Positions 9,878-64,000 of a stretch of 64,000 nt of DNA are shown here, one piece after another. Position numbers and translations under genes: made by a program. A model generated the notes under the pieces. That model did no database searches. It was not told the origin of the DNA and saw only the letters and a list, made by a program, of their open reading frames with translations. Every line of letters starts with the position of its first letter. Within the stretch, counting starts at the first letter, position 1. The stretch is from an uncultured bacterium (GTDB taxonomy: Bacteria; Verrucomicrobiota; Kiritimatiellia; RFP12; UBA1067): positions 9,853 to 73,852 of the forward strand of contig CADCOC010000002.1 of the NCBI GenBank assembly GCA_902802945.1, read 5' to 3'.

Positions 9878-10037
9878 TGCAAATGCTCCTATTTGTTTGA
9901 CGGACGTGGACAGTTTAGCACAATCGAATTGCAGATGCAACAGCCAAAACATGCGGACGGCGCGTTGTGCTACGCAGCCTAGTAGAACGGGCTGCCAGCC
10001 CGTTCAAACTTCACCTCAATCTGCAATTATAAATTTT

Positions 10038-10072
10038 CCCCCTTGCAACAGGCAAGGGGGATTTGGTAAACT
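10038..10072 (+). promoter_or_regulatory. Promoter of the giant gene, TTGCAA(10043-48)-N18-(TG)TAAACT(10067-72). It is overlapped by the hairpin CCCCCTTGC-aacag-GCAAGGGGG (10038-10060).
   Basis: Read directly. The same 'TGGTAAACT' extended -10 occurs before tRNA-Ser at 61750-61758. Confidence 0.4.
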
Positions 10073-28803: not shown

Positions 28804-31800
28804 ATGAACAAAACGATTCTGTCGCTCGCGGTAGTTCTTACATCGGCGTGCTCGGGGTTTGCGGCGTTTCGTCCGCCCGCCGTGCCGCTCGTATCATGCG
28901 ACCCGTTCTTCAGCGTGTGGAGCGCGGCGGATACGCTCACGGAGAAGGAGACGACCCACTGGGCCGGCGCGAAACAGCCGATCTCCATCACCCTCACTGC
29001 CGATGGCAAGACGTGGCGTCTCTGCGGCCTCGAGCCGCAATCTATTCCAGCGTTGCCACAGACGGGCGTGAAAGTGATGCCGCTCCAAACCCGCTATGCC
29101 TTCGCTGGCAACGGCCTAAGAGTTTCGCTAGTATTCTCGACGGCGAAATTGACCGATGACTTGGATGTATTTTCGCGCCCGGTCACCTACGTGACCGCCT
29201 ACGTGGAGGGCGCGAAGGAGTGGAAGCTCAGCGCCACGATTTCGCCCGCGCTCGCGACGAACAACGACAAGGCGCAGATGGTCACCAACCGTTGCACAGT
29301 GGCGGGGCTGCCTGCAATCTCGATCGGACGGAAGGAGCAGCGTCCGCTTGCCTACAGCGGTGACCGCGTGCGCTGCGACTGGGGTTATGCGTGGCTCGTG
29401 GGCCCGAGCAAGGTGGCCGCGACAAGCGCGGCCCTCCCGCAGAGTGGCGGGGATGGCGTGGTTGAGGAATCGCATTTCCTCCTCGCCTACGACGACGTGA
29501 AGGCGATCCAGTTCTTTGGCGACGATCTCCCCGCGTGGTGGCGTCGCGACGGACTTTCCTTCACGGCTATGCTGGAGAAAGCCGAGGCGGAACGCGCCGC
29601 GCTCCTGAAGAAAATGGATGCGTTCGATGCAGAACTTTACGCCGATCTCGTAAAGGTCGGCGGCGAGAAGTACGCGGCGCTCGCGAGCCTCGCCTACCGC
29701 CAGACGTTCGCCGCGTGCAAGCTCGCGGCGGACCGCAACAACCAGCCGCTCTACTTCTCGAAGGAACAGGACTCCAACGGCTGCATCGGGACGGTGGATA
29801 TCCTCTATCCGCAGTCGCCGCAGATGCTGTTTGTCAGTCCTACGCTCATGCGTGCCATGCTCGCGCCTGTGCTCGTCTACGCCTCCCATTCGCGCTGGCC
29901 GTGGCCGTTTGCGCCGCATGACCTCGGGCAGTACCCCCTCGCCAACCAACAGCGCTACGGTGGCGGCGAGAAGGGGAAGAGGGAATCGCTGCTGATGCCC
30001 GTGGAGGAGAGCGGTAACATGATCATCTGCCTCGCGGCACTCGCGCAGATCGAAGGCACGGCCGAGTTCGCGTCGTACTGGTGGCCCACCGTCACGAAGT
30101 GGGCGGAGTACCTCGCGAAGTTCGGCTTCGATCCCGGCAACCAGCTCTGCACGGACGACTTTGCGGGACACCTCGCACACAACGCGAACCTCGCCGCGAA
30201 GTCCATCGTGGCCCTCGCCTGCTACGCCCGCCTCGCGGAGGCGCTCGGCTACTTCGACGTCGCCGCGAAGTACGCCAAGATGGCGAAGGACATGGTGCCG
30301 AAGTGGATGGAGGCCGCAAAGGGCGGCGCGGAGGGCGCGTACCGTCTCGCCTACGACCGTCCCGGCACATGGTCGATGAAGTACAACCTCGTGTGGGACC
30401 GCGTGCTCGGCCTCGGGCTCTTCCCGCAGTCCGTGTTCGACGCGGAGGCCAACGCCTACTGCCGTCTCGCACGCCCCTTCGGTCTGCCGCTCGACAACCG
30501 CAAGCTCTGGACGAAAACCGACTGGGAGCTCTGGTGCGCCGCGTTCACCGACCGCCGCGAGTGTTTCGACGCCATCGTCGACCGCGTCTATCGCTTCGCC
30601 AACGAGACGCCGAGCCGCGTGGCGTTCTCCGACTGGTACTGGACCCACAACTCGAAGTACGTCCACTTCATCGGGCGCAGCGTGATCGGCGGCGTGTTCA
30701 TGCCGATGCTTCGCAGCGGGGCGATGTGGAAGAAGTACGCCTCGCGCGACAAGGCAAAGACAGGTGTCTATGCCCCGCTCAAGGAGCGGGCAAGGTGCAA
30801 GATCATCGCCCCGGAAGGGCGTATGTCGGCGGACATCAAATGGAAGTACACCTTCACGAAGCCGCCGGCGGGATGGGAGCAGCCGGGATTCGACGATTCC
30901 GGGTGGCAGACCGGCGCGGGCGGATTCGGATTGGCCGGCACGCCGGGCGCAAGCGTCCGCACGAAGTGGGACACGAAGAACATCTGGTTGCGCCGCCATG
31001 TGTCGCTTGACGCCGTGCCTGCCGAGCCGTTCCTTTCAATCCACCACGACGACGACACGAAGGTGTGGTTCAACGGCGTGCTGGCCGGAGACTTCCATTG
31101 CTACTCGTGCGACTACGAGCCGCAGAATGTGTCCGCTGCCGCCGTAAAGGTGCTCAAGCCCGGCGACAACGTGATCGCCTCGACCACGTACCAGGACTAC
31201 GGCGGACAGTACATCGACTACGGTCTTGCGGCGTCCAACGACGAAGAGGACGCCTTCAACCTCGCGTCGTTCAACATCCGCTGTCCGAGTCCGTCGGATA
31301 CGGAAAACAATTTCTGGTCCAACCGCTTCCCGTACGTCGTCCAGGTGATCAACAACCGTCGTTTCGACATCGTGGGCATGCAGGAGCTCGCGCCCAAGCA
31401 GAGGAAATACCTCGACGAGGCGTTGGGCGATGGCTGGGGACGTATTGGCATCGGGCGTCTGCCGGATGACAAGGGCGAGTCGATGACCATCTACTATCGC
31501 AAGGACCGGTTCGAGTGCCTGGACACAGACACCTTCTGGCTCTCCGAGACGCCGCGCGAGCCTGGGTCGGAGTCGTGGAACACGGCCTGCCCGCGCATCT
31601 GCACGTGGGGCCTTTTCCGCGACAAGCGCACGGGCCGGAAGTTCCGCTACTACAACACGCACCTCGACCACATCAGTAACGAGGCGCGCGTGAAGGGCAT
31701 GAGAATTATCCTATCGGAAATGCGCCGCCTCTCGCAGGGCGAGACCGTCTTCCTCACCGGCGACATGAACGCGCACTACAAGCACGTCCCGGCGGAAGAC

Positions 31801-37384: not shown

Positions 37385-37602
37385 CGGCGAACAAGAACCT
37401 GCTTCGGATGAAATTCGCCCGTGTGATCGAGGCGTATGCCGCCCGCACTGGCTGTTCGCTTGACGAGGCGCTGGATTGCTTCTATCGCTCGCAGACCTAC
37501 GAGTTGATGCGTGATGGCATATCAGACATGCATTGCATGAGCGACGAGTATCTCGTAGATGAATTGATTGATGAAAAAAACTTGAAAGGAACGGGAAAAT
37601 GA
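37381..37602 (+). CDS. DUF3791-like small protein
   Basis: ATGA overlap with the upstream gene. LRMKFARVIEAYAARTGCSLDEALDCFYRSQTYELMRDGISDMHCMSDEYLVDELI follows the DUF3791 pattern. Confidence 0.55.
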   Translation: MTANKNLLRMKFARVIEAYAARTGCSLDEALDCFYRSQTYELMRDGISDMHCMSDEYLVDELIDEKNLKGTGK

Positions 37603-39383
37603 AAAAGGCAATTTTGTTTTTTGCCGCGATGGCGGCAACAATGGCGGCACTCACCGCGCACGCCGATAACTGGACCGATCCCTCAACGGGCATCACGTGG
37701 ACGTACACGGTCAGCAGTGGCAATGCGTCGTTGGGACGTGGGTGGGATTCTCCCGCCGTACCAACCACAACAACTGGCGCATTGACCATCCCATCCACAA
37801 TCAACGGCCATTCCGTGACTAGCATAGGGGAACGTGCGTTCTCTAGTTGCAGTGGGCTTACGAGCGTGATGATACCCGACAGCGTGACGAGCATCGGGCC
37901 TTCTGCGTTCCGCAATTGCAGCGGTCTTACGAACATGACGATACCTGACTCGGTGACGAGCATCGGGGATGGGGCGTTCGATTGTAGTGGATTGACGAAT
38001 GTTACGATACCTGACGGCGTGACGAGCATTGGTAATGAAGCGTTCTTCTATTGCAGCGGTCTTACAAGCGTGACGATACCGGACAGCGTGACGAGCATCG
38101 GGTATCGGGCATTTTCCTACTGTAGCGGGCTTCTGTCTTTTACTGTCGGCGATGGCAATGTAAACTACAAGTCGGTAAACGGCTTGTTGTTGTCTAAGGA
38201 TGACAAGACGCTTATTGCAGGCGTAAATGGCGACGTGATGATACCGGATGGCGTGACGAGTATAGATGATGCGGCGTTTAGCGATCGTAGCGGGCTTACG
38301 AGCGTGACGATACCGAACAGTGTGACAAACATCGGGTATTCTGCGTTCTCCAGCTGCAGCGGTCTTACGAGCGTGACGATACCTGACTGCGTGACGAACA
38401 TCGGTAATGAAGCGTTCAGGGGTTGCAGTGGGCTTAAGAGTGTGAAGATCGGCAACGGCGTTATGAGCATCGGGATTAATGCGTTCTACAATTGCAGCGG
38501 ACTTACGAGCGTGACATTCCTTGGACATCCTCCGCAGGGAGTATCAGATTCCTGCCTGGGTACTTATGCCTGTAGTTTCAAGTGTCCGAGACAATTAGGC
38601 TCTGAATATATCAGTTTATTAGGCAGGTCAAAGTTTTCGGGATTTGTTGAGGACCTGCCATTGACGGTTGTGCAGATTATATCTTCTGGCATTCGCGAAA
38701 ACGATCCGACGGTGATGGATGTGGTATATAAGGTTACGAGCGCAAAACCGACGGTCAAAGTGCGGGCGTTGGCGTTTGAGGATGGCGAGCGGAGTTTTGC
38801 CAAGGTAGTACGTCCGGAAGCATTCGTGAACGACTCCGATGGTAATTCTACGGCGCAGAACATCGGTGATGCGGTTGTGGCCAATGTGCCGCATAAACTT
38901 TCATGGAAAGTGTCGAGCGAATGGGCTACGAGACTTGCAAAGGTGAAGTTCGAGGTGCTGGCGTGTGAGGGCGAACCATTGCGTTTGGAGTTGCGCACGA
39001 TTCCCGCATCAGACCAATACGGCAAGATGAAGATTTCTTGGAATGTTATTTCAGACGCCCAATTTTTGGATGCAATGTTTTGGCTGTATGCTGATAAGGA
39101 TAGTGGATTTAAAGTGGAGAATGGAATCATAAAGCGTACATCGGATAATTTCTTGATGTCCTATGATGGGTGCGCTATCTCGACATTTTCTCGTAATTCT
39201 AGGCAGTATGTCAATGGCGTGCGGAATTACTATGATTTTGCATCCGTTCCAGAGTATGTTTTTGCGAAGATGGGGTATTCTTTGCTTTCGGGCGATACGC
39301 TGACCTACGCCAATCAGGAGACCCGCCTTGGCTTGTCGCCGAGTGGCGCACGCCAATATGCCTACAAGATCGTGGAGGAGTAA
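37599..39383 (+). CDS. Secreted BspA-type leucine-rich-repeat (LRR_5) cell-surface protein with a C-terminal domain of unknown function
   Basis: Signal peptide MKKAILFFAAMAATMAALTAHA. There are more than 10 repeats of IPDSVTSIG..AF..CSGLTSV. The start overlaps the stop of the upstream DUF3791 gene (ATGA). GC is low. Confidence 0.8.
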   Translation: MKKAILFFAAMAATMAALTAHADNWTDPSTGITWTYTVSSGNASLGRGWDSPAVPTTTTGALTIPSTINGHSVTSIGERAFSSCSGLTSVMIPDSVTSIGPSAFRNCSGLTNMTIPDSVTSIGDGAFDCSGLTNVTIPDGVTSIGNEAFFYCSGLTSVTIPDSVTSIGYRAFSYCSGLLSFTVGDGNVNYKSVNGLLLSKDDKTLIAGVNGDVMIPDGVTSIDDAAFSDRSGLTSVTIPNSVTNIGYSAFSSCSGLTSVTIPDCVTNIGNEAFRGCSGLKSVKIGNGVMSIGINAFYNCSGLTSVTFLGHPPQGVSDSCLGTYACSFKCPRQLGSEYISLLGRSKFSGFVEDLPLTVVQIISSGIRENDPTVMDVVYKVTSAKPTVKVRALAFEDGERSFAKVVRPEAFVNDSDGNSTAQNIGDAVVANVPHKLSWKVSSEWATRLAKVKFEVLACEGEPLRLELRTIPASDQYGKMKISWNVISDAQFLDAMFWLYADKDSGFKVENGIIKRTSDNFLMSYDGCAISTFSRNSRQYVNGVRNYYDFASVPEYVFAKMGYSLLSGDTLTYANQETRLGLSPSGARQYAYKIVEE

Positions 39384-39492: not shown

Positions 39493-40182
39493 ATGGCTGA
39501 GATACCGAAAATCGTGCTGCCTCATGGCGGCTACCGCAATCTCGTGGCCTACAAAAAGAGCGAAATCGTGTATCAGGGCACGGCGCTCTTCTGTCGCCGC
39601 TTTCTGCCGCCGAATGGCGACCGCACCGTTGACCAGATGCCCCAGGCCGCCCGCAGCTGCAAGCAGAACATCGCCGAAGGCTCGGCCGCAAGCGGTACGT
39701 CGAAGGAAACCGAGCTTAAGCTTACCAACGTCGCGCGGGCAACGCTTGACGAACTGCTGGAAGATTACCTTGATTGGCTCAAGTCACACGGCGAAAGCGA
39801 ATGGACCGCTCGCGACGAGCGCAAGATCAAGGCCCGCGACCTCGGCAAGGAGCACGACGACTGGGAGTTCTGGCAGCCGCTCCTTGAATCGCGTCCGGCG
39901 GAGGTTGTCGCCAACCTGATGATCGTGATCATCTACCAGACGCGCTACCTCCTTGATCGCATGATCGCCTTTCAGGAAGCGGATTTCACGAAACACGGCG
40001 GTGTGCGCGAGCGGATGCACGCCGCCCGCACGGTAGCTCGCGGCGATGAATGGGATAAGGCGATCTACTCGCGGCTCGACGGCGCCGCGAACGCCGCAGA
40101 ACTCGCCGAAAGACTGGCCGAGATCAAACGCCAGGCCGAAAAGGCCGCCTGGGGCATTAGGAAGCGGAGGGGTTGGCAATGA
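39493..40182 (+). CDS. Four-helix-bundle protein (TIGR02436, the '23S rRNA intervening sequence protein' / bAvd-like family) with a C-terminal extension
   Basis: PHGGYRNLVAYKKSEIVYQGTALFCRRFLP...DQMPQAARSCKQNIAEGSA is the family signature. RBS 'ggaggg'. Confidence 0.65.
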   Translation: MAEIPKIVLPHGGYRNLVAYKKSEIVYQGTALFCRRFLPPNGDRTVDQMPQAARSCKQNIAEGSAASGTSKETELKLTNVARATLDELLEDYLDWLKSHGESEWTARDERKIKARDLGKEHDDWEFWQPLLESRPAEVVANLMIVIIYQTRYLLDRMIAFQEADFTKHGGVRERMHAARTVARGDEWDKAIYSRLDGAANAAELAERLAEIKRQAEKAAWGIRKRRGWQ

Positions 40183-42914
40183 GAATTAGAAGGGCGGAAG
40201 AAGCGACGGAAGCGACTAAAGGGACTAAAGCGACGGAAGCGACCAAAGCGACTGCTAGGGGCTTTCGCAGGAGTCGCTTGGGTCTCTTGAGTCTCTTTGG
40301 TCTCTTGATTCCCATGGGGCTTTTTGCCGATATCGTGCATGTTTACGAGCGGTCGCTGGCTGGCGGCGTAGCCAGCCAGATGAGCGACCGTACGCTCGAC
40401 ACCGGCAATACCTACTCAACCCAAAGCGCCCCCGCGAAGAGCGGCTACATCTTCACCCACTGGTCGATTTCGGTTGCGCAGCCAATCGATAACCGCGACC
40501 GTTTGGGTCGGGCGAAAGAAGTTACATCATTCACGCTCTACGAGGAAACCACGCTCACGGCCAACTATCTGGCTGAAGGTGAGGATTCCGACAACGACGG
40601 CATCGCCGACGGCTGGGAAATCTATTGGTATGGCGACCTTTCAAAGAATGCTTCGAGCGATACCGACAACGACGGCTTCACCTTCGCTGAGGAACTCGCG
40701 GCGGGTACCGACCCGCTTATGCCCGACGAATCGCTTCCCGGAGGCATCGTTTGGCAGGATGGCGCGCTTGTGCAGTACAATCCCGACAACCTTCAGCCCT
40801 ATACGATTCGCAGCGAGCCGGAAGGCGCGCTCTTCGCGACGGTAAGAGACTATCTGAAGCCGGGGCAGGTGATACCTATACCATATTCAGGGACACAAGG
40901 AACGCAAGGGACAGGTTTTGCATACTGGACGATCGACGGCGTGCGTCAGGCCGATAGGCACGGAAGGGCGCTTGACACGCTTTCGGTGACGATGCCGAAC
41001 ACTGCAATCGAGATTGTTGCCGTCTCCGAGAGCGACGAGGCGAAGCGCAATTCGCTCTACTGGTACGGCACCGCTTCCGTTGCGCAGAACAGCGACACCG
41101 ACAACGACGGCTTCACCTTTGCCGAGGAACTGGCGGCGGGCACCGATCCGCTAATGCCCGACGAATCGCTTCCCGGAGGCATCGTCTGGCAGGATGGCGC
41201 GCTTTTGGAAATGAACCTCCAGCCCTACGAGCAGGTGCTAGGCGCAGTCGTTGGCGGGGCGTATTCGCAGGTGTTTACTTCGCCAGTCGCTGGCAACGCC
41301 GCCACGAGCGCGACCTTCGGCAACGGCGGCGCCGTGTGGCCGGTGGTGGCCGATGTGAATGGCGATGGGCTGTGGGATTTGGTGGTGTGTTGGGAAGGTG
41401 AAGGGGAAGAGACGCAAGGGACTGCACCGCTTACACAATCGCTGACCATTTTCATCAATGTGGGCACCAAGGGCAACCCCGAGTTTGAGGTTGATGTGAG
41501 CGGCGCGCTCGGCGAGCGCGCCCTACCGTGGCTGGCGATGAACTCGCCCGAGAAGCTTGCCGGGCTTTCGCTCGACGTGCCTGCGCCGGGTGATGCGCTT
41601 TCGGCCACCACCAACGGCACCGCGCTTCTGGTGAGCGATAGCGAGGGCCGAATCTGGTATTATAAAGGGACGCAAGCGACAGAAGCGACTGAAGGGACTT
41701 CACCAACATCCCAGTCGCTTGAGTCTCTTGAGTCTCTTTCGTCGCTTTCCTTCACCCTCCAGCACAAGGTGTGGGGGGGCTCACACGCCGGCTTTGCGCA
41801 GGGGCTACGGCTCGCGGCGGTTGACTGGGATGATGATGGCGATCTCGACTGCCTTGCGGGTACCGCCGACGGCAAGCTGATGCTGTTGCGCGATCCGAAG
41901 GTGGGGCGGCCCACGAACCTGAAGGCGCTCGCTGGCGTGGATAACGTGCTGCTCACGTGGGATCCGAACGCGCAGAGCCGCATCAGGGGGTATAGGGTTT
42001 ATCGTGCGGAGGGGGAAGGAACAGCAAGCGTACAACAACAAGGTGGGGAGTCGACTTCGGGGACTGAGGGCTTTACGCGGATTGCGCAGCCGCAGCTGCC
42101 GACTTACCGCGATTTCCCGAACGGCGGTCACGGGGTGACCGCCCTACCGGAATACGCCTACAAGGTATCATCGGTGAGCCGGTTCTACACCGCCGGCAAC
42201 TCGACGCCCACGGAAACGGAATCGCCCGCGACCGAGGCGGTGACGGCGCGGCTGGGCAGCGTGCGCTTCTTCTGGAACGACGCGGCTACGAAGGTGGGCG
42301 AGCAGTTCGAGGTGATGCTTTCAATAGAAAACTCGATGAACTACTCCGTGACTGGCCAGACTGAGGTGGTTGCCTACGATCCAGAGTATTTGACGCCCGT
42401 GAAGGTGGTGAAAACGGGGCTCACGGAGGAGTGTGTGATTGAAGAGACTCACGGGACGAAAGAGACGCAAGGGACAGGGACGGAAGTGACCGGCGAGTGG
42501 CGGATCACGGTGAGTGGCGCGAGCGGGACAGCAAGCGTACAACAGCAAGGTGGGGCGGTCATTTTGCCGGCTGGCGGCGGGAAGTTCCTTTCGCTCGTTT
42601 TTGAAGCGAAGAAGGAGGGCGTGACGACGGTCGGCGGTCGCGGGGCGACCGCCCTGCCGGCGAGCGATGGGGCGTATGCCACGGTGAGCATTGCGGCGCG
42701 CTCGGTGATCGCGCCCTACCAGCTCGGCGACGTGGATGGCGACGGCGATGTGGATGAGGCCGATTTGCGGCTTCTGGCGAAGCTGTATAGTTCGCAGGGG
42801 GGCGCATCTATCGATGACAATCAGCGCAAGGCAGGCGATTTCAACGGAAACGGTAAGCTCGACAATGCTGATTACCAGGCGTTGAGGGCGTTGTTGAAAG
42901 AAAGGGGACTTTGA
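40179..42914 (+). CDS. Large secreted protein with TSP3-like (DTDNDG) repeats, FG-GAP/VCBS repeats, an Fn3 domain, a cohesin-like domain and a C-terminal type-I dockerin
   Basis: Dockerin DVDGDGDVDEADLRLLAKLY...DFNGNGKLDNADYQALRALL. FG-GAP ADVNGDGLWDLVV and VDWDDDGDLDCLAG. Cohesin-like YDPEYLTPVKVVKTGL. The N-terminal signal anchor is encoded through 9-mer tandem repeats. The gene contains R1, R2 and R3 mini-repeats. Confidence 0.7.
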   Translation: MRIRRAEEATEATKGTKATEATKATARGFRRSRLGLLSLFGLLIPMGLFADIVHVYERSLAGGVASQMSDRTLDTGNTYSTQSAPAKSGYIFTHWSISVAQPIDNRDRLGRAKEVTSFTLYEETTLTANYLAEGEDSDNDGIADGWEIYWYGDLSKNASSDTDNDGFTFAEELAAGTDPLMPDESLPGGIVWQDGALVQYNPDNLQPYTIRSEPEGALFATVRDYLKPGQVIPIPYSGTQGTQGTGFAYWTIDGVRQADRHGRALDTLSVTMPNTAIEIVAVSESDEAKRNSLYWYGTASVAQNSDTDNDGFTFAEELAAGTDPLMPDESLPGGIVWQDGALLEMNLQPYEQVLGAVVGGAYSQVFTSPVAGNAATSATFGNGGAVWPVVADVNGDGLWDLVVCWEGEGEETQGTAPLTQSLTIFINVGTKGNPEFEVDVSGALGERALPWLAMNSPEKLAGLSLDVPAPGDALSATTNGTALLVSDSEGRIWYYKGTQATEATEGTSPTSQSLESLESLSSLSFTLQHKVWGGSHAGFAQGLRLAAVDWDDDGDLDCLAGTADGKLMLLRDPKVGRPTNLKALAGVDNVLLTWDPNAQSRIRGYRVYRAEGEGTASVQQQGGESTSGTEGFTRIAQPQLPTYRDFPNGGHGVTALPEYAYKVSSVSRFYTAGNSTPTETESPATEAVTARLGSVRFFWNDAATKVGEQFEVMLSIENSMNYSVTGQTEVVAYDPEYLTPVKVVKTGLTEECVIEETHGTKETQGTGTEVTGEWRITVSGASGTASVQQQGGAVILPAGGGKFLSLVFEAKKEGVTTVGGRGATALPASDGAYATVSIAARSVIAPYQLGDVDGDGDVDEADLRLLAKLYSSQGGASIDDNQRKAGDFNGNGKLDNADYQALRALLKERGL
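42126..42150 (+). repeat. R1 in-frame palindromic mini-repeat (GGTCACGGGGTGACCGCCCTACCGG), encoding GHGVTALP
   Basis: Family consensus is GGYC(R)(S)rGGGc(K)GRCC-GCCCTRCCG. Other copies are at 42636-42660, 42973-42996, 47245-47317 (an inverted pair) and 48799-48823. Confidence 0.75.
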
Positions 42915-42915
42915 T

Positions 42916-44307
42916 ATGGTGAGAGAGATAGAGATGCGGAATACAACAAGCGTACAACAGCAAGTTGGCGGCGGTCGCGGGGCGACCGCCCTACCGTGGT
43001 GGCGTGTTGCGGCGCGCTCGGGGATCGCGCCCTACCGGTGGTGGGTGGCACTTCTGGCGATGGTTGTTGCGCCGGTGGCGTTGGCCTATCAGGTTTCAGT
43101 GGGCACGTATGTGGCGAATGCGGGGCGGCAAATCACCGTGCCGGTTGCGCTGGATTCGGCGGCGGGGCTTTCCTACGCGAGCGCCACGATTACCTACGAT
43201 CCGCAGGTGCTAGTGGTCACGAAGGCCGAGGCGGGGTCGCTCAAGTCGCTGATGGCGGAGGATTTCGTGGCGGTTGATACGAACGGCATGCTGACGGTCT
43301 CGATCTTCGGTTCGACGGACGCGAACGTTGCAAGCGGCTCCGGCTCGATTGCCAACGTCACGTTCGCGGTGCGCGAAGGGACGGCGGGGCTCTACTCCGA
43401 CTTGGCCGTGAGCAGCGTCGAACTCGGCGAGAAGTCGGGTGTGAAGGATGTCACGGCGGGGAATCCGGTTCAGACAGTGAGCGGAATGGTGCGCGTGATG
43501 GGCGAGACCGCCGAGGTGACGCGTCTGGAGAACGCCGAAATCGTCGTTGCCGATACCGCTTTGGGTGCGCTGTCGCTCAGCGCGGGCGATGCGATTCAGG
43601 CGAGCGATGCGCAAACGGCGATTCGGGTGTCCGGCGCGGTGTCGGCATCGGGCGCAATCGCCGTCAAGGCACCGGCGAACGGATGGGCAAGCGGAACCTA
43701 CGCGCTTCTCTCCACGACCACGGCGGGGTTGGCGTTCAGCCTGGAAGGGGTGGACGGCGCGACGTTCTCCACCGAGACGGCGAATGGCGTGACGACGTAC
43801 TACGCGGCGGTTTCCGTTGCTGGCGAGATTCCCGTGACCTGTGCGGCGGAGGTATTGTCCGCCGGGGCGAAGAACCAGATTCGGTCGCTTCTTGCCGGTC
43901 AGTTGTCCGGCGTGACGGAGATTGTCGTGTCGGGTCCGCAGGGGAATGTGGGCTTGATTGCGGACATGGGCATCGCGCCGTCCTGCACGCGCGACGGAAC
44001 GCGTCTGCTGGCAAACTATACGATGCCGGAACTGCGCATCACGCAGTTCGATCCCAAGACGGGGGCGGTGCGCTTCAAGGTGACGCCCGGCGCTGGCAAT
44101 CAGATCGTTTCTGAAATCGCAACGGGGTACATCCACATGTACGGCACGAACAGCCTGAGCGAGAAGATGAAGTACATCTCGCAGGTCGGATTCGACCTCA
44201 CGCCGTATCTCAAGGCCGAAACCAAGGGCGAGGGTACGCTCTACGTTACCCTCGGCACGCATACTTTCCTGAAAGTCAAGATTGAAGCAGAAGTAAAGGA
44301 AGACTGA
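42916..44307 (+). CDS. Cohesin-domain surface protein (N-terminal signal/TM, then a cohesin module)
   Basis: YQVSVGTYVANAGRQITVPVALDSAAGLSYASATITYDPQVLVV...VTFAVREGTAG is cohesin-like. Its first ~40 codons are built from the R3+R1+R2 repeat units. Confidence 0.6.
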   Translation: MVREIEMRNTTSVQQQVGGGRGATALPWWRVAARSGIAPYRWWVALLAMVVAPVALAYQVSVGTYVANAGRQITVPVALDSAAGLSYASATITYDPQVLVVTKAEAGSLKSLMAEDFVAVDTNGMLTVSIFGSTDANVASGSGSIANVTFAVREGTAGLYSDLAVSSVELGEKSGVKDVTAGNPVQTVSGMVRVMGETAEVTRLENAEIVVADTALGALSLSAGDAIQASDAQTAIRVSGAVSASGAIAVKAPANGWASGTYALLSTTTAGLAFSLEGVDGATFSTETANGVTTYYAAVSVAGEIPVTCAAEVLSAGAKNQIRSLLAGQLSGVTEIVVSGPQGNVGLIADMGIAPSCTRDGTRLLANYTMPELRITQFDPKTGAVRFKVTPGAGNQIVSEIATGYIHMYGTNSLSEKMKYISQVGFDLTPYLKAETKGEGTLYVTLGTHTFLKVKIEAEVKED

Positions 44308-44309
44308 CC

Positions 44310-46460
44310 ATGCATAAGAAAGCAATAACGTTTGCAGCCGGGATTCTCTCGGCGGCCGCCCTTGCCGTGACGGCAAGGCCGACGGCGCAGGAGGTGTTCA
44401 AGGGCATCAAGAACGTGGAGTTCGACAATGTGAAGATTGTCTATGCTCCGGAAAAGGTGTTCTGGAACATGGAGGTCGAGGTCGATGGCGAGAAGGCGCC
44501 GCTTGTGGTGGAGAGCATCGCGCAGGAGTGCCGCAGGGAAGGCGGCAAGCTCATGTATGGCCCGCTCACGTGCGGCGACAAGACGTTCGACATGAAGGTG
44601 GTCGTGAACGTGCGCGACACGCCGTCCGGCAAGGCCTATTCAGGCATCGTGGAGAACAACGACAAGCGCGTGCGCGTGACGATGTTCAACGGGCCGAAGC
44701 TCGACGCGGTCGCCCTCGACCCCGCCAAGGCGCACATCTACATCCCCGCCGGGTTCGGACGCCGCCTCAACTACTTCCCGACCGACCAGAAGAAGCTCGA
44801 ACCGTGGGAGAAGAAGTCCAACGAGATCATGTACCTCGAGACAAGCCCCTATCCCTCGCGTCACCTCTCGATGCCGTGGATCGCGATCGACACGGGAAAA
44901 GGCACATGGTACGCGGCCGTGCATGACGCCCAGGAGCGCTTCAAGCGCATCGGTGTCAGGTGGTATAACCGCGCGAAGAAAACCGACGTGCGCTTCCGCC
45001 ATCCGGTGTCCATCCGCGCGGGCGACAAGTGGGAGCTCCCCGAGACGGTGTTCGAGAAGGTCGACGGCGACTGGCACGCCGCGGCGAAGCGCTACCGCGC
45101 CTGGTTCGACTCCGCGCATAAGGCGGTGAGGTCCGCCGCGCCGGACTGGACGCGCGACCTCACGGGTTGGCTGCTCGTGATCATGAAGCAGCAGAACGAG
45201 GAGCTGATGTGGCCCTATGCCGATATTCCGAAGCTCTGCGACGTCGCCGAGCGCAACGGACTCAACTCCATCGGGCTCTTCGGCTGGACGGTGGGCGGGC
45301 ACGACCACCTCTATCCCGACTACGACGCCGACCCGAAGATGGGCGGCGCGGAGGCGCTCAAGGCCGGCATCGCCGAGGCGCACCGGCGCGGCATCCGCGT
45401 GTGCATCTACGCGAACGGACAGCTCCAGCAGATCGGCGCGACGAAGTTCTGGGGTGAACACGGCGAGAAGATCGCCATTCGCAAGCGCGACGGTTCGCCG
45501 TACATCCAGACGTACCACAAGTACAGGAACATCCCCGTTTACAGGTTCGCCCTTGGCTGCCTGCACGCCGAGCCGTGGCACGACCGGATGCTCGCGCTCG
45601 CCAGACAGGCGCGGGGCTTCGGCGCGGATGCGATCCTCTACGACCAGCTGGGCGTGACGACGCCGTTCGAGTGCTGGGGCAAGGGGCACGGACATCCCGT
45701 CCCGTGGCACAGCCACTGCGAGGAGCGTCCCGGATTCGTCCGGCGCATCGCGGACGAAATGCACGCGACCGACAAGGACTTCGCCGTCTTCACCGAAGGG
45801 CTCCACGACGGGCTTCTCGACACCATCGGCATGTTCCACGCGTGCCAGCCCAGCTCGTTCATGTGGGACGTCAACGCGCTGAAGGCGAGCCGCGCCACGT
45901 CGCGCGCGAATGCCGAGCCGTTCCCCGAACTCTTCCGCTACACGTTCCCGGAACTCGTCACCACCACGCGCAACCCCACGCCGATGACGCTCCGCTCCTT
46001 CGTGAACTACGCCGCCGTGTTCGGTCTCCGGCACGAGATCGAAATCCGCTACATGCCCGACCGCACGTACGCGCTCGACGGCAAGGTGCCGACGAAGAAG
46101 GACTACGGCGAGGTGAAGAACCTGCCGTCGCTCGCGGCGATGCACGCCGAACCGCCCACCGTCGCGAGTGCCTACATGAAGGCCGTGGCCGACTTCCAGC
46201 GTACGCACGCGAAGTACCTCCTGCGCGGCAAATTCGTCGATGACGAAGGGATCACATGTCGGAGCAGGGTCGTCGCCAAGCGCTTCATCGCCGATGACGG
46301 CACGAGCGCCGTGTGCGTGTGGAACATCACGAACAAGCCTGCCGATGTCATGATCAACGGATTAGGCAAGCCGACAGGCGTATTTGCTCCCGGAAGTGAA
46401 TCCACGAACGGACAGATTCGCCCAGATTCGCTGAGACTGTACGTCTATGGCGTGAAGTAA
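44310..46460 (+). CDS. Secreted hypothetical protein, possibly a TIM-barrel glycoside-hydrolase-like enzyme
   Basis: Signal peptide MHKKAITFAAGILSAAALA. GWTVGGHDHLYPDYD...RVCIYANGQL is suggestive of a GH-like barrel. There is no confident family. Confidence 0.4.
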   Translation: MHKKAITFAAGILSAAALAVTARPTAQEVFKGIKNVEFDNVKIVYAPEKVFWNMEVEVDGEKAPLVVESIAQECRREGGKLMYGPLTCGDKTFDMKVVVNVRDTPSGKAYSGIVENNDKRVRVTMFNGPKLDAVALDPAKAHIYIPAGFGRRLNYFPTDQKKLEPWEKKSNEIMYLETSPYPSRHLSMPWIAIDTGKGTWYAAVHDAQERFKRIGVRWYNRAKKTDVRFRHPVSIRAGDKWELPETVFEKVDGDWHAAAKRYRAWFDSAHKAVRSAAPDWTRDLTGWLLVIMKQQNEELMWPYADIPKLCDVAERNGLNSIGLFGWTVGGHDHLYPDYDADPKMGGAEALKAGIAEAHRRGIRVCIYANGQLQQIGATKFWGEHGEKIAIRKRDGSPYIQTYHKYRNIPVYRFALGCLHAEPWHDRMLALARQARGFGADAILYDQLGVTTPFECWGKGHGHPVPWHSHCEERPGFVRRIADEMHATDKDFAVFTEGLHDGLLDTIGMFHACQPSSFMWDVNALKASRATSRANAEPFPELFRYTFPELVTTTRNPTPMTLRSFVNYAAVFGLRHEIEIRYMPDRTYALDGKVPTKKDYGEVKNLPSLAAMHAEPPTVASAYMKAVADFQRTHAKYLLRGKFVDDEGITCRSRVVAKRFIADDGTSAVCVWNITNKPADVMINGLGKPTGVFAPGSESTNGQIRPDSLRLYVYGVK

Positions 46461-46482
46461 AAAACTGATTGAGGAATATGCA

Positions 46483-49428
46483 ATGACAACAGAAAATACA
46501 ATCACGAAAAACAAGTGTGTGAGAAGTGCTCACGGCAGAGCAGCCATCCTGGCATTAGCCTTAGGGGTTGCGTCATGCGTGTTGGCATACGCCCCTGCGC
46601 CGGTCGTGTTCGATACGCCGGCCAAAGACGAGAAAGGCATCATGGTGCTCGGCAACGGCGAGGTGGGCGCGACCGCGTGGCTGGACGCCGCCGGCACGTT
46701 GCACACCGTGCTGCAGAACTCCGATTCGTGGAACGAGGGCGGACGCCATGTGAAGACCGGCGCGATCGACTACGAGACGAAGTCGCCTGTCGACGCGGGC
46801 ACGTACCGTCAGGAGCTTTCGATGGAACGTGGCGAGTTCGAGGCCACGTGGAAGAGCGGCGGAAGGGCGGTGTCGCTGCGGTACCGCATCCAGCAGGGGA
46901 CGGACTCGATCGCCGTGTGCGACGTGAAGGGCGCGCCGGACGTCGAGGCGAAGGTGATCAACTGGCGTCTCTATCCCGGCGGGTCGAAGGAGTTCGGTGT
47001 CGGCGAGTACGAGCTCGGCAACAGGTTCTGCGAGGGCGGTCCTTTTGGGAAGGTGCTGAGCAAGAAGAAGTTCACCATCAGCGCCGACCGTCTTGTGCCG
47101 GGCGGCTGGTGCCACGTGAACCGCAACGAGACGGTTGCCGACCTGATGAAGGTGTATGACTTCTACCAGGCGACGGGCGATCTCGGCAAGCCGGATTTGC
47201 TTTCGGACCGCGCGTTCGGTGGCGTGACGCGAAAGTATTGCGGCGGTCAGAGGGCTGACCGCCCTACCTCTGGTAACATCGGTTCGGTAGGGCGGTCGCC
47301 CCGCGACCGCCGTACCCTCTTCCTTACCGCGATCACGTGCTATCATCCGTGCAAGGACGCGGACGAATGGCTGCGCCGCACGAACGAGATGCTCGACCGC
47401 GACGGCTGGAACATCGACGGCGAGGAGGCGAAGCGCGCGGCGCACATCGCCTGGTGGCGCACGTTCTGGAACCGCAGCCACATCGCGGTCACGCCGTCCG
47501 AAACGGCGAAGAACGCGCCGCCCAAGCCCTACGACTTTCCCACCAACAGCAAGCTGCCGCTCAGCTTCGGCGTGGATTCCAGGGGCGGCAACAAGTTCCT
47601 CGGAACGTTCGCGTCCGCCGAAGTGTCGTTCGACGGGAAGGTTGTGTATTCGGGCGTCCCGAAGGTGGGAGAGGTTATTGCAACGGGCAAGATGCCCGTT
47701 GTCCCAGTTGCGGGCGAGACGCCCGCCACCCCAGCAACGGGCAAGATGCCCGTTGTCCCAGGTTTTCACTTCAGGTGCAAATTCACGACGGATCATCTTG
47801 AGAAGCCGCAGCGGCTTCTCGACAACATGACGCCCGGCGGAAGCGACGGTTTCATCGTCGACGTCTATCTCGGGCGCCCGCGCGCGATTTTCGGTCCGGT
47901 GCAGATGCACCACTCCTCGAAGATCGCGGCAGGACGCGAGACGACACTCGAGGTGAGCGTGTCGAAGTACGGTACGGCGGAGATCGTCGTGAACGGCAAA
48001 AGTGAGAAGAAGGAGCTGGGGCGTCCCGTCATCCCGCTTGCCGACGAGTGCGCGGCGATCACCACGGCCTACGCCGCGCAGCGCTACCTCACCGCGTGCG
48101 CGTCGCGCGGACGCCTCCCGATCCGCTTCAACGGCACGCTCTTCACGATCTCCCACAGGGGCGATCCCGACTACCGCCGCTGGGGCAACGGCTACTGGTG
48201 GCAGAACACGCGCCTGCCGTACTACCCGATGTTCGCCGCCGGCGACATTGACGGCACCGACGCGCTCTTCGACATGTACTTCGGGAAGCTGGAGTTCTTC
48301 AAGAAGCGCACGAAGAAGTATTTCGGACACGACGGCGCGTACTTCCCCGAGTGCATGCAGCCGTGGGGCGACCACTTCATGGGCTGTTACGGTCCGGAAT
48401 GCGAGTGGAAGTACCGCAAGGACAAGCACCAGTACCATCACTGCCACAAGTACGCATGGGTGGGCCAACTGGAACTCTCGCTCATGGCCATCATGCGCTG
48501 GCAGCACACGCGCGACGATGGATGGTTCAAGAAAAATGCGCTGCCGTCCATCCGCGAGTACGTGCGCTACTTCGACGGACACTTCAAGCTGGACGCGAAG
48601 GGCCGCTATCACATGTACCCCGCGCAGGCGATCGAGACGTGGCAGGACTGCACGAACCCGATGACCGAAGTGGCCGGCCTCACCCGCGTCACGGACCTCC
48701 TCCTCGCGATGCCCGACAACGTGGTCTCGGCGGACGACCACGCGTTCTTCGCGAAGATCCGCGCGCGCCTGCCGGAGCTGCCTACGCGCACGCTCGGCGG
48801 CCAGAGGGCTGGCCGCCCTACCGAGTCGGCGATCGTGTTCGCGCCGGCGGAGATATTCAAGCGCCACGGCAACGTCGAGACGCCGGAGCTCTACTGCGTG
48901 TTCCCGTTCCGTCTCAGCTCGTTCGAGAAGCCGAATGCGGAGATCGGCCGACGCACGTACACCGATGGGCGTTTTCATAAGCTCTACTTCGGCTGGGCGC
49001 AGGACGAGTTGAACGCGGCGTACCTCGGCATGGCGGAGGAGGCGCGCGAGCACATCGTCGACCGCGTGTTCAAGAACACGCCCACGCTTGGCCGGACGAT
49101 CGCCTGCAACGAGGAGAACATCGCCGAGCGCGCGTACAGGCCCTCCGAATATCGCTGGCCGGCGTACTGGGGCCCGAACTACAACTGGCGTCCCGACCAG
49201 GACGAGGGCGGCGTGTTCCAGAACACGATCCAGTCGATGCTCCTGCAGTACGAGGGCGACAAAATCTTCCTCCTGCCTGCGTGGCCGAAGGAGTGGAACT
49301 GCGACTTCAAGCTCAACGCCCCCGGTAACACCACCGTCGAGGGCCGCGTGGAGAACGGCGAGCTGAAGGATCTTGTCGTGACGCCCGCCTTCCGCCGCGC
49401 CGACGTGGTCAACGCCGCAGTGCGATAG
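46483..49428 (+). CDS. GH95-like (DUF5703 / alpha-L-fucosidase-family six-hairpin) glycoside hydrolase
   Basis: The N-terminal MVLGNGEVGATAWLDAAGTLHTVLQNSDSWNEGG parallels the GH95 LGNGrlGa...LNedtlW motif. The gene contains R1 copies and an R6 duplicated 27-mer at 47680-47761. Confidence 0.5.
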   Translation: MTTENTITKNKCVRSAHGRAAILALALGVASCVLAYAPAPVVFDTPAKDEKGIMVLGNGEVGATAWLDAAGTLHTVLQNSDSWNEGGRHVKTGAIDYETKSPVDAGTYRQELSMERGEFEATWKSGGRAVSLRYRIQQGTDSIAVCDVKGAPDVEAKVINWRLYPGGSKEFGVGEYELGNRFCEGGPFGKVLSKKKFTISADRLVPGGWCHVNRNETVADLMKVYDFYQATGDLGKPDLLSDRAFGGVTRKYCGGQRADRPTSGNIGSVGRSPRDRRTLFLTAITCYHPCKDADEWLRRTNEMLDRDGWNIDGEEAKRAAHIAWWRTFWNRSHIAVTPSETAKNAPPKPYDFPTNSKLPLSFGVDSRGGNKFLGTFASAEVSFDGKVVYSGVPKVGEVIATGKMPVVPVAGETPATPATGKMPVVPGFHFRCKFTTDHLEKPQRLLDNMTPGGSDGFIVDVYLGRPRAIFGPVQMHHSSKIAAGRETTLEVSVSKYGTAEIVVNGKSEKKELGRPVIPLADECAAITTAYAAQRYLTACASRGRLPIRFNGTLFTISHRGDPDYRRWGNGYWWQNTRLPYYPMFAAGDIDGTDALFDMYFGKLEFFKKRTKKYFGHDGAYFPECMQPWGDHFMGCYGPECEWKYRKDKHQYHHCHKYAWVGQLELSLMAIMRWQHTRDDGWFKKNALPSIREYVRYFDGHFKLDAKGRYHMYPAQAIETWQDCTNPMTEVAGLTRVTDLLLAMPDNVVSADDHAFFAKIRARLPELPTRTLGGQRAGRPTESAIVFAPAEIFKRHGNVETPELYCVFPFRLSSFEKPNAEIGRRTYTDGRFHKLYFGWAQDELNAAYLGMAEEAREHIVDRVFKNTPTLGRTIACNEENIAERAYRPSEYRWPAYWGPNYNWRPDQDEGGVFQNTIQSMLLQYEGDKIFLLPAWPKEWNCDFKLNAPGNTTVEGRVENGELKDLVVTPAFRRADVVNAAVR
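47245..47317 (+). repeat. Composite R1 element: two R1 units in inverted orientation (GGTCAGAGGGCTGACCGCCCTACC ...17 nt... GGTAGGGCGGTCGCCCCGCGACC), in-frame inside the GH95-like gene
   Basis: Read directly. The second half is the exact reverse complement of the 42973-type unit. It encodes GGQRADRPTSGNIGSVGRSPRDRR. Confidence 0.75.
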
Positions 49429-62621: not shown

Positions 62622-64000
62622 CCCTGCACCTGGACATTCTCGAAGGGCAGGCCGCGACAAGCGCGGCCCTCACGCGTGAAGCGGCAAGAGTGCCGCTTCC
62701 CCGAACGGCGGCTGCGTTTCGCGGGGAGCGGTCCGTGGGGGTGGATGGCAATCTCGTGCCGCTTGTCGGGGATGAGTTGCTGGAGGCGGTGTGCGAGGTG
62801 GTCTGGTTCAAGGATGAGGTCCGGTTGGAAGGGGAGTGCGTCATCCCCTCCATGCGCAATCTCCTGATGTTCCTTTCCGACGTGCGGACGCGCCGTTTCA
62901 AGGCGGGCGTGTTCCTTGGGGACGACGTGCTGACGGCGGCGGAGACGTTCCGCGCCGCCGCACGCACTGTCGCTGACGGCGCCTACCTGCCGCATCTCGT
63001 GGAGGAGGCGGGCGGATTCGCCGCGCGGTGGTTGCCGCTCGATACGTCGCGCGGCGCGTTCTTCGCGTGGCTTGTGGACGGCCTTGCGCGCTTCGGCGGA
63101 CGCACCCCGCTTGAAACGGGAGCGGCGCGTCCGGATACCGTCCATGATGCCTGGCTCTTCGCGCTACGAAGCGACGACGGGCGCATCGCGTGGACGGACG
63201 AAGACGACATCCGTGCGCTCATGCACGACCTCGCCGTGTGGCGCGCGCCACTGCGCGTCTCCGCCGCCGACCGCGCCGCGCTACGCTTCTCCCTTGAACC
63301 GCCAGCCGAAGAGGACGGCATCTGGCGGCTTCGCCTCGCATCCGTACCCCGCACGCGCGCTGGACTCGTCTCGCTCGGACAGGCCGTCTCCCTCTTTCCT
63401 CCGCTTGCCGCGCTCCGCGGAACAGAGGCCGAACTCGACCGTGCGGCGGCGGAGTCGTTCCTCCGCACGGGCGCGCAGGCGCTCGTCGGTGCCGGCTACG
63501 CGGTGGAACCACCGCCCGGACTGCTCGGCGAACATGTGGACGCCGAGGCCGACCTCGCGCCCGTCTCCGACGAGCCGTCCGCGCCCGTCACGACGAAACT
63601 CACGATTCGTGTGGACGGAGAGGTCGTCACCGAACAGGAAATCCAGTTCCTCCTCGACCAGAACTCGCCGTTCGTGTTTTTCCGCGACCGCTGGATCGAG
63701 GTCGACCGCGCCGTGTTGCGTGAGGCCCTGCGCGCGCTGCGCGACGTGAAGGGGAAGAAGGTGTCCGTCCACGACGCCATCGCGCTCGCCTTCGGACTCC
63801 GCCGAGCCGGGGGACTCCGCGTGGACCGCGTGCGCGCGCACGGCTGGCTGCGTGGCCTTATCAACGAACTGCGCGGTGAGCAGCGTTTCCGCGTGCTGGA
63901 TGCCCCCGTCGGTTTCAACGGCACACTACGCGACTACCAGCTCCGCGGCGCGAGCTGGCTTGCCTTCCTCGCGAAGTGGGGATTCGGGGCGTGTCTTGCG
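62615..64000 (+). CDS. SNF2-family helicase (N-terminal helicase-associated region up to the start of the SNF2_N domain). The 3' end runs off the window.
   Basis: The ATG overlaps the rpe stop (ATGCTGA). The window ends in ...LRDYQLRGASWLAFLAKWGFGACLA, the SNF2 DEXH-box entry motif. It contains an R4 core repeat at 62650-62668 (encoding AATSAAL). It is absent from the ORF track because there is no in-window stop. Confidence 0.7.
   Translation, partial: MLTLHLDILEGQAATSAALTREAARVPLPRTAAAFRGERSVGVDGNLVPLVGDELLEAVCEVVWFKDEVRLEGECVIPSMRNLLMFLSDVRTRRFKAGVFLGDDVLTAAETFRAAARTVADGAYLPHLVEEAGGFAARWLPLDTSRGAFFAWLVDGLARFGGRTPLETGAARPDTVHDAWLFALRSDDGRIAWTDEDDIRALMHDLAVWRAPLRVSAADRAALRFSLEPPAEEDGIWRLRLASVPRTRAGLVSLGQAVSLFPPLAALRGTEAELDRAAAESFLRTGAQALVGAGYAVEPPPGLLGEHVDAEADLAPVSDEPSAPVTTKLTIRVDGEVVTEQEIQFLLDQNSPFVFFRDRWIEVDRAVLREALRALRDVKGKKVSVHDAIALAFGLRRAGGLRVDRVRAHGWLRGLINELRGEQRFRVLDAPVGFNGTLRDYQLRGASWLAFLAKWGFGACLA

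Follow-up and report, generated by a model that had tools for sequence, protein, structure and literature searches.

Probable GTAG-tagged REP elements in frame inside genes of an uncultured Kiritimatiellia bacterium

A 64,000-nt stretch of DNA from an uncultured bacterium of the Kiritimatiellia (Verrucomicrobiota; GenBank assembly GCA_902802945.1, contig CADCOC010000002.1, positions 9,853 to 73,852; hereafter the window) carries nine copies of a short palindromic unit, here called family A, all between 41.5 and 48.8 kb (within 7.3 kb) and inside three genes. These units are very probably repetitive extragenic palindromic (REP) elements with a GTAG tag, occurring as singlets and as one inverted dimer that resembles a REP doublet forming a hairpin (REPIN), and belonging to a family widespread in the Planctomycetes-Verrucomicrobia-Chlamydiae (PVC) superphylum. 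The GTAG superfamily of REPs is characterized by a GTAG tetranucleotide beside a short GC-rich stem-loop (Di Nocera, De Gregorio & Rocco 2013, BMC Genomics 14:522, PMC3733652). The identification follows from the length of the units (26-27 nt), the GTAG tag by a short palindrome, the lack of terminal inverted repeats and target duplications, and the presence of such units on the flanks of genes for REP-associated tyrosine transposases (RAYTs) in other genomes. Seen across orthologues, the copies in the window are in-frame indels that differ between lineages and fall at a few predicted surface loops, with the exception of one copy (c4 in Table 1) whose origin by insertion is doubtful, and orthologous loops carry different hairpin families in different relatives.

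Anatomy and reading frames of the units in the window

The stretch from 41300 to 49100 was read directly and searched for the tail motif and for perfect hairpins. Each family-A unit consists of GGCG-N5, a loop of 3-4 nt, N5-CGCC and then CTACC, giving a hairpin of 21-22 nt and a 5-nt tail, and the complementary strand reads GGTAG, a G and the palindrome with its 9-bp stem (in GTAG-first form, GGTAG-GGCGGTCGCCCCGCGACCGCC). The stem is GC-rich, perfect in seven of the nine copies and interrupted by a single mismatch in the other two. Stem pairs were counted directly, with 79 of 81 stem cells paired; MAFFT puts the gap in the wrong place for the two 4-nt-loop units when it aligns the nine copies. 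Compensatory double changes between copies are found at stem positions 5, 6, 8 and 9. The tail is CTACC, which is GGTAG on the other strand, in eight of nine units and CTGCC in the unit at 42633. The motif GCCCTACC matches nine times in the window against 0.92 expected, a number reached in none of 100 shuffles; eight of these matches are unit tails and the ninth, at 21613, is without a hairpin, while the CTGCC-tailed unit is not counted. In addition, perfect hairpins (stem at least 7, loop 3-5) number 53 in the window against 19.7 +/- 4.9 in first-order Markov simulations.

Two of the copies, c7 and c8, form an inverted dimer (47242-47311), which encodes GGQRADRPTSGNIGSVGRSPRDRR and has its GTAG tags turned towards one another on either side of a 17-nt spacer, an arrangement like that of REPINs. 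As single-stranded DNA the dimer folds into one long hairpin of -30.2 kcal/mol (z -6.2), and none of 200 shuffled sequences is as stable.

The window units use three forward frames and one reverse frame. The forward peptides are GG(R/H)G(A/V)TALP and GALGERALP in one frame, AARS(V/G)IAPY in the second and GGQRA(D/G)RPT in the third, and the reversed unit gives VGRSPRDRR. The same DNA is therefore read in several frames as unrelated peptides, indicating that conservation acts at the DNA and not at the peptide level. Five of the six frames of the unit are free of stops, and one reverse frame holds a TAG stop.

A first-pass annotation made from the sequence alone had placed these units at coordinates that hold within ~3 nt, and had taken them for GC-rich palindromes inserted in frame at the DNA level; the palindrome is confirmed, and the use of several frames and both orientations, together with the lineage-specific pattern in orthologue alignments, bears out the insertion. 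Its unit of ~24 nt is too short, and it listed eight copies, missing c4 at 42695-42720, and two frames. The three host genes, which it described as adjacent, are interrupted by a DUF6259 gene without copies (44310-46460) between host genes 2 and 3. Hairpins of other families also lie in frame in the window, at 24250, 29415 and 47681-47761.

Table 1. Hairpin units and host genes in the window (positions in nt of the window; stem-loop-stem+tail where sequence is given)
Feature	Position	Strand	Sequence or product	Encoded peptide	Location and remarks
c1	41502-41527	+	GGCGCGCTC-GGC-GAGCGCGCC+CTACC	GALGERALP	TSP3/cohesin/dockerin gene (host gene 1); perfect 9-bp hairpin
c2	42123-42148	+	GGCGGTCAC-GGG-GTGACCGCC+CTACC	GGHGVTALP	Host gene 1
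c3	42633-42658	+	GGCGGTCGC-GGG-GCGACCGCC+CTGCC	GGRGATALP	Host gene 1
c4 (REP-like)	42695-42720	+	GGCGCGCTC-GGT-GATCGCGCC+CTACC	AARSVIAPY	Host gene 1; one stem mismatch
c5	42970-42995	+	Same as c3 except CTACC tail	GGRGATALP	N-terminal region of cohesin gene (host gene 2)
c6 (REP-like)	43011-43036	+	Near-identical to c4	AARSGIAPY	Host gene 2; directly upstream of signal-peptide hydrophobic core
c7	47242-47268	+	4-nt loop		DUF5703/GH95-like gene (host gene 3); half of inverted dimer
c8	47286-47311	-			DUF5703/GH95-like gene; other half of inverted dimer
c9	48796-48822	+	GGCGGCCAG-AGGG-CTGGCCGCC+CTACC	GGQRAGRPT	DUF5703/GH95-like gene
Second hairpin family, three hairpins	47681-47761	+	CAACGGGCA-AGA-TGCCCGTTG+TCCCAG twice, between them GCGGGCG-AGA-CGCCCGC+CACCCCAG	TGKMPVVPVAGETPATPATGKMPVVP	Host gene 3
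Host gene 1	40173-42914	+	TSP3-repeat/cohesin-like/dockerin protein, 913 aa (Pfam)		Carries c1-c4 and other short repeat families
Host gene 2	42916-44307	+	Cohesin-domain protein, 463 aa (Pfam Cohesin, E 3.6e-12)		c5 and c6 within first 41 codons
Host gene 3	46483-49428	+	DUF5703_N/GH95-like protein, 981 aa (Pfam)		Carries c7-c9 and the second-family triple

Association with RAYT genes and copies in other genomes

The link to a transposase comes from other genomes, whose loci are given here by L numbers where they have to be told apart. A gene at 1178-1900 on the minus strand of L026 scores 81.2 bits (curated cut-off 80, E 6e-23) with the NCBIfam model for the REP-associated tyrosine transposase, NF047646, and the source records of its homologues call them RayT or transposases of Luteolibacter, Opitutales and Verrucomicrobia. 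On both flanks it has GGCGGTCTCGGCGAGACCGCC-CTACC, 22 nt and GGTAG-GGACGGCTCGCCGAGCCGTCC, the same architecture as the window dimer. The RAYT homologue of L125 is preceded by two and followed by four copies of GGCGGTTTCGGAGAAACCGCC+CTACC, with GGTAG-hairpins on both sides, and that of L124 (Opitutales) has a GTAG-hairpin and a hairpin with CTACC on each side. Units of this type thus flank RAYT genes in three unrelated contigs, indicating that they are the REPs that belong to a clade of PVC RAYTs.

The pattern GGCGGTC-N7-8-GACCGCCCTACC, run once over species-representative genomes, gave at least 114 stretches, and all figures given below for other genomes refer to the matches listed. Nearly all of them belong to Kiritimatiellae, Lentisphaerae, Verrucomicrobiota (including Opitutales) or Planctomycetota (Thermoguttaceae), with one metagenome-assembled genome (MAG) of Hydrogenedentota; the Verrucomicrobiota among them include the cultured species Pelagicoccus mobilis and Roseibacillus ishigakijimensis. 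The MAG RGIG2765 has at least 12 loci, and related genomes have multiple loci each. Inverted pairs are frequent in these genomes, and the flanks of identical units have nothing in common. The two inner stem pairs, which the pattern leaves free, are both complementary in 125 of 150 copies; the GTAG tag is present in all 150, but it was part of the search pattern.

The coding context of these copies was assessed by open frames and codon-position GC, for the 122 copies far enough from the end of their locus. No frame is open for 80 codons on both sides in 96 of them (~80%), 21 lie deep inside a coding-like frame and five are ambiguous. The intragenic share is 7 of 30 in Kiritimatiellae, 7 of 19 in Lentisphaerae, 3 of 38 in Verrucomicrobiota and 0 of 8 in Planctomycetota, and one family-A copy lies in an apparent intergenic gap of L003. 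Intragenic hosts elsewhere in PVC include Tex, the glutamine amidotransferase domain of CarA, a Nuo51-like protein, an aconitase-family protein, a rhamnosidase and a phosphodiesterase/LamG protein. The description of the hosts as secreted-protein genes in the first-pass annotation is therefore too narrow, given the same unit in the Tex, CarA, Nuo51-like and aconitase-family genes, and its picture of an intragenic element is right for the window, where every copy is intragenic, and wrong for the ~80% of copies sampled elsewhere that lie in no long open frame.

Frame and orientation were pooled over 30 intragenic copies, namely the nine of the window and the 21 from other genomes. The Gly-Gly phase (GGC GGN) is used by 20 of the 30 (P ~4e-8 versus equal use of the five open frames), and 27 of the 30 are co-oriented with their gene (P ~3e-4 versus a 3:2 expectation). 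GGCGGC is already present at many empty target sites; together with the Gly-Gly phase this could reflect a target preference, microhomology or selection for a flexible peptide.

The CarA genes of Verrucomicrobia UBA3624 (L048, 782-807) and Kiritimatiellae RGIG2765 (L056) carry an identical family-A unit at the same position (..EITSQNHNFAVV-GDGGRGATALPDC-LEVTHVNLNDGT..). This unit, shared by two MAGs labelled as different phyla, is explained by an old shared insertion, by parallel insertion or by inconsistent taxonomic labels. Single family-A matches are also found in MAGs labelled Paenibacillus, Polynucleobacter, Acidimicrobiales, Bacteroidales, Sphingobium and Saccharofermentans (L010, L021, L045, L054, L069, L111), which are probably mis-binned PVC contigs or chance matches; L021 has the ATGGCAAT loop variant and flanks common to Opitutales loci.

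Variation among orthologues and location of the sites in the protein

The DUF5703 gene has 105 homologues, from Kiritimatiellae wherever they are named. In a codon alignment of seven orthologues with 80-93% protein identity, all internal indels of at least 3 aa fall at three sites, every one of these indels involves hairpin elements, and empty sites exist. L120 and L003 lack any insert at site 1 (tgc gga gcc ggt gtt ctc), where the window holds the dimer; L119 has a monomer there that ends in GTACC, L002 another unit and L121 an inverted pair of the second hairpin family. A deletion joining the two GACCGCC direct repeats of the dimer would yield the L119 monomer. A wider set of 37 orthologues adds TASVQQQGG units (1-3 copies) or RLGEAALP-type units at this site. 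One beta-hairpin loop has at least six different insert types across orthologues. Site 2 is occupied by the second-family triple in the window and by a reversed family-A unit in three orthologues (GGTAGGGCGGTCGCCCCGCGACCGCC in L118, whereas L002 and L003 have a mutated tag), or by nothing. Site 3, with c9, is empty in five of six orthologues, and L002 has another hairpin dimer, of 54 nt, at the same point.

The copies in the other two host genes vary in the same manner. At the DNA level c1 is kept in two close orthologues, and distant ones have other sequence of similar length at the loop. L122 and L123 lack c2, with a net difference of +18 nt at the empty site aac GGC GGC gat, and, compared with L123, c3 belongs to a clean insertion of 39 nt at gtc GGC GGC^gcg, a site where one orthologue holds a TASVQQQGG unit. 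The two close orthologues examined at the DNA level share c4, L123 lacks a 42-nt segment that includes c5, and c6 is kept in both L122 and L123. Comparison of filled with empty sites shows that the target is not duplicated and that, apart from the hairpin, there are no terminal inverted repeats. The understanding of the units as insertions thus stands, since further copies exist and orthologues lack the segments or carry other elements, and REP hairpins appear to be the main source of indels in these genes among closely related gut Kiritimatiellae.

An AlphaFold2 model of the DUF5703 protein, built from alignment A1, is of moderate quality (mean pLDDT 68, pTM 0.70, the predicted confidence scores for local structure and overall fold). 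All three sites coincide with predicted coils of pLDDT <50 between beta strands: site 1 with coil 256-273 between E243-254 and E277-287, site 2 with coil 402-424 between E386-391 and E428-436, and site 3 with coil 773-779 between E768-771 and E783-786. The other low-confidence segments of the model contain no element; tolerance alone may therefore not explain the reuse of three loops.

Proposed mechanism and points against it

The units are proposed to be non-autonomous and to be mobilized in the source organism by a single-copy HUH tyrosine transposase (RAYT), which would recognize the hairpin and its GTAG tag on single-stranded DNA and would then cut and rejoin the hairpin unit, by analogy with TnpA-REP of E. 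coli and the IS200/IS605 transposases. For TnpA-REP, the RAYT of E. coli, binding of the hairpin in single-stranded form and cleavage at its GTAG tag are known (cited in PMC3733652). Copies inside genes would be kept only if the net change is a multiple of three, the frame is free of stops and the extra 5-25 residues, once translated, fall in a tolerant place; in the window such places are beta-hairpin loops, inter-domain linkers and the region upstream of the signal-peptide hydrophobic core. A loop with a hairpin appears to attract or exchange further hairpins, which may be the cause of its repeated use and would lead to different REP families in each lineage, and deletions may occur between the short direct repeats that palindromic units create.

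Several observations weigh against identification as RAYT-mobilized REPs. All nine window copies are intragenic, where REPs are typically extragenic, and the unit is near-identical across several phyla, where REP families are often species-specific. No RAYT was found in the window or in related Kiritimatiellae loci with an E. coli RayT sequence and 67 PVC RAYT homologues as probes; among 117 loci probed, L026 gave the only real match, and none of the RAYT homologues from the protein search has a Kiritimatiellae label. The first-pass annotation had expected clean indels of 24 or 72 nt, whereas the net length changes range from 15 to 48 nt at five sites (~+15, +18, +24 to +27, +39, +42 and +48 nt) and the codons flanking the indels are often altered. 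Such variable lengths and unclean boundaries are not predicted by a simple cut-and-paste of a fixed unit. In addition, c4 and c6, the units with a stem mismatch, fold no better than shuffled sequence, and the c4 linker aligns without gaps to distant homologues, so that c4 may not be an insertion at all.

Alternative explanations

The same irregular indels could mean that recombination, gene conversion or template switching between existing hairpins and GGCGGC targets is the main way in which the units spread, with only a historical link to RAYTs. Empty sites often hold GGC GGC, matching the 5' end of the unit, the L119 monomer fits a deletion within the dimer, families replace one another at the same codon position, and the Gly-Gly phase predominates. 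However, identical units are found at hundreds of loci that are unrelated, lie in several phyla and share no flanks, which requires a dispersal mechanism; RAYT genes flanked by these units exist; and the phase bias could equally reflect selection for a flexible Gly-rich peptide. As the main route of spread this explanation is unlikely, but a contribution from recombination or template switching is a serious rival account.

Selection of the hairpins for a function in host DNA or RNA, such as mRNA stabilization, pausing of ribosome or polymerase at domain boundaries or control of supercoiling, is less likely still. Compensatory changes keep the stems, the reversed unit at site 2 retains a perfect hairpin down to ~78-82% protein identity although its GTAG tag is mutated in two orthologues, most intragenic copies are gene-oriented, and roles of REPs in mRNA stability and termination have been discussed (PMC3733652). 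The presence of elements varies among close relatives at every site, however, and families substitute for each other while many orthologues are element-free, which argues against a required function there. The orientation bias can come from strand-specific transposition of single-stranded DNA together with the TAG stop that closes one reverse frame. No Rfam family was found between 39.5 and 49.6 kb in a scan at E up to 1, the sole match being a spurious miRNA (22 bits versus a 90-bit threshold).

That the units are members of the Rickettsia palindromic element (RPE) family, or Correia-like MITEs (miniature transposable elements with inverted repeats) colonizing coding sequence, is very unlikely, even though in-frame intragenic palindromes adding short peptides act like RPEs. 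RPE-1 is roughly 100-150 bp long, and MITEs duplicate their target. Classic RPE-1 is described as a 'longer palindromic insertion', and MITEs measure 70-300 bp with terminal inverted repeats of 15-30 bp (PMC3733652), whereas the window units are single short hairpins of 26-27 nt with neither terminal inverted repeats nor target-site duplications. The short RPE-4 and RPE-6, in turn, belong to the CGTC superfamily, whose REPs are without a reported transposase association (Table 1, PMC3733652), and the window units have a GTAG tag and RAYT flanking, which is reported for GTAG but not for CGTC REPs (same table). The same paper calls RPEs REP-like. The likeness to RPE and Correia elements seen in the first-pass annotation accordingly holds for RPE-like functional behaviour and fails as a family assignment, by tag, size and RAYT flanks.

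A protein-level motif (a selected linker peptide or low-complexity segment) or chance GC-rich palindromes can be all but dismissed, because although the units lie in extracellular proteins at loops and linkers, where short segments rich in Gly/Pro/Ala are often found, frame and orientation data refute it (the same DNA in four frames, with unrelated peptides), copies elsewhere lie outside any long open frame or in the apparent intergenic gap of L003, and the counts are far above shuffled expectation.

Comparison with known systems

For GTAG-tagged REPs, the closest precedent is Opitutus terrae. In all, 24 GTAG and 4 CGTC REP families have been defined, GTAG REPs are known from PVC bacteria, and O. 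terrae has the largest number of intragenic ones (PMC3733652). Its in-frame REPs add 7-8 aa as singles and ~15-30 aa as dimers to hosts that include glycoside hydrolases, UvrA, DNA ligase and translation factors, and the authors accept intragenic units as members of the GTAG REP family (PMC3733652). The O. terrae families GTAG-17 to -20 are like the window units in having a 6-9 bp stem-loop with the GTAG tag at one end, and GTAG REPs of that species are likewise singlets and inverted dimers of several coexisting families, associated with a RAYT, with many copies wholly in ORFs. At the peptide level, GTAG-19 (GTGVPPV, TGGTPVP, HGRDARAT) resembles the second hairpin family of the window (TGKMPVVP; GTTGVSPV and GQDARSP in orthologues). 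Unlike the present case, in which each of the nine copies in the window is intragenic, the O. terrae survey covers no Kiritimatiellae. Neither family-A sequence nor its peptides (GGRGATALP, AVAGRPPY, VGRSPRDR) appear in the list and supplementary files published for O. terrae; judged by that list and those files, family A is probably a new sequence family. Reuse of a loop by different families across orthologues is described there only for Xanthomonas recB genes.

The arrangement also recalls REPIN-RAYT systems (Bertels & Rainey 2011, PMC3116915; Nunvar et al. 2010; Ton-Hoang et al. 2012), in which inverted REPs form a longer hairpin, as at window 47242-47311 and in the RAYT flanks of L026 and L125, and the RAYT gene is flanked by its own REPs, here in other genomes. 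REPINs are described as extragenic and largely lineage-specific, whereas the window dimer sits in the frame of an enzyme gene and its unit is near-identical across phyla. RPEs (Ogata et al. 2000, 2002) share with the units the position of palindromes in frame in functional genes and the tolerance of added surface-exposed segments; they differ in length (RPE-1) or in their CGTC tag (RPE-4, RPE-6) and come from an unrelated phylum. Correia/NEMIS and other MITEs are likewise small non-autonomous repeats that can lie within transcripts, but their length of 70-300 bp, terminal inverted repeats and target duplication are found in none of the window units. A literature search on palindromes in Kiritimatiellae found nothing relevant. 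In-frame GTAG REPs in PVC ORFs were thus already published in 2013, for O. terrae, and the window case is an extension of a known phenomenon to a new host class. What is mildly new is limited to the reuse of loops and the strong Gly-Gly frame bias; the near-identity of one REP sequence across several PVC phyla is also of residual interest.

Other repeats and features in the window

The second-family triple (Table 1) has an RNA fold of -51.8 kcal/mol (z -7.2). A further hairpin family, GGCCGCG-ACAAG-CGCGGCC+CTCCC, has three copies, at 24250-24273, 29415-29438 and 62650-62673, against zero expected. Two of them lie deep in long plus-strand ORFs (VAATSAALP), one of these open for >4,800 codons, and the third is close to the 5' end of an ORF, indicating that in-frame hairpins extend beyond the 41-49 kb cluster. 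At 9982-10005, in apparently intergenic sequence, there is a GTAG-tagged hairpin, GTAG+GAACGGGCT-GCC-AGCCCGTTC, which is also found inside the DUF5703 orthologue of L002; it is followed at 10037-10061 by a terminator-like hairpin, TCCCCCTTGC-aacag-GCAAGGGGGA, with a T-run. About 8 kb downstream of that orthologue, L002 has a gene with a Cas_NE0113 (PF09623) domain at 21388-22584.

Two shorter repeats accompany the units in the host genes. The 22-nt repeat ACAGCAAGCGTACAACARCAAG (TASVQQQ), without a hairpin of its own, occurs at 42021-42042, 42528-42549 and 42943-42964, all on the plus strand, against zero expected. In orthologues it forms tandem 42-nt units followed by its reverse complement (..TASVQQQGGD LAVVRLLSS), an array that would give a stem of ~23 bp at the loop occupied in the window by the REP dimer. 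At 40201-40324, 41665-41756 and 42451-42476, a repeat with a 9-nt period, (AAGCGACNG)n, precedes its inverse, (AGTCKCTTG)n, and the two together form long, imperfect hairpins whose arms measure 28-43 nt and are translated as KATEATKGT... and ...SRLGLLSLFGLL. In gene 40173 the second arm, at the 5' end, encodes a Leu-rich stretch resembling the hydrophobic core of a signal peptide, in place of which some orthologues have an ordinary signal peptide. The long in-gene tandem and dispersed repeats with a period of 66-69 nt at 37814-38555 and 16114-17231 are leucine-rich repeats of the BspA type (LRR_5; ORF 37599-39383) and not mobile hairpins.

Implications

It is conceivable, if doubtful, that REPs of Kiritimatiellae and Lentisphaerae are directed to particular codon positions (GGCGGC or loops already holding a hairpin), so that successive families insert, swap and delete at surface loops. 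The loop with six insert types, the Gly-Gly phase of 20 of 30 intragenic copies and the higher intragenic shares in Kiritimatiellae and Lentisphaerae than in Verrucomicrobiota are compatible with such targeting. If true, directed REP insertion would be a built-in generator of variation in loop length and sequence in extracellular enzymes and scaffold proteins.

Peptides derived from the hairpins (GGRGATALP, VGRSPRDRR, TGKMPVVP) recur in thousands of PVC proteins, where they can mislead homology searches, start-codon calls and signal-peptide predictions. The partnership of REPs and RAYTs also reaches well beyond the Proteobacteria, the group in which it has mainly been studied.

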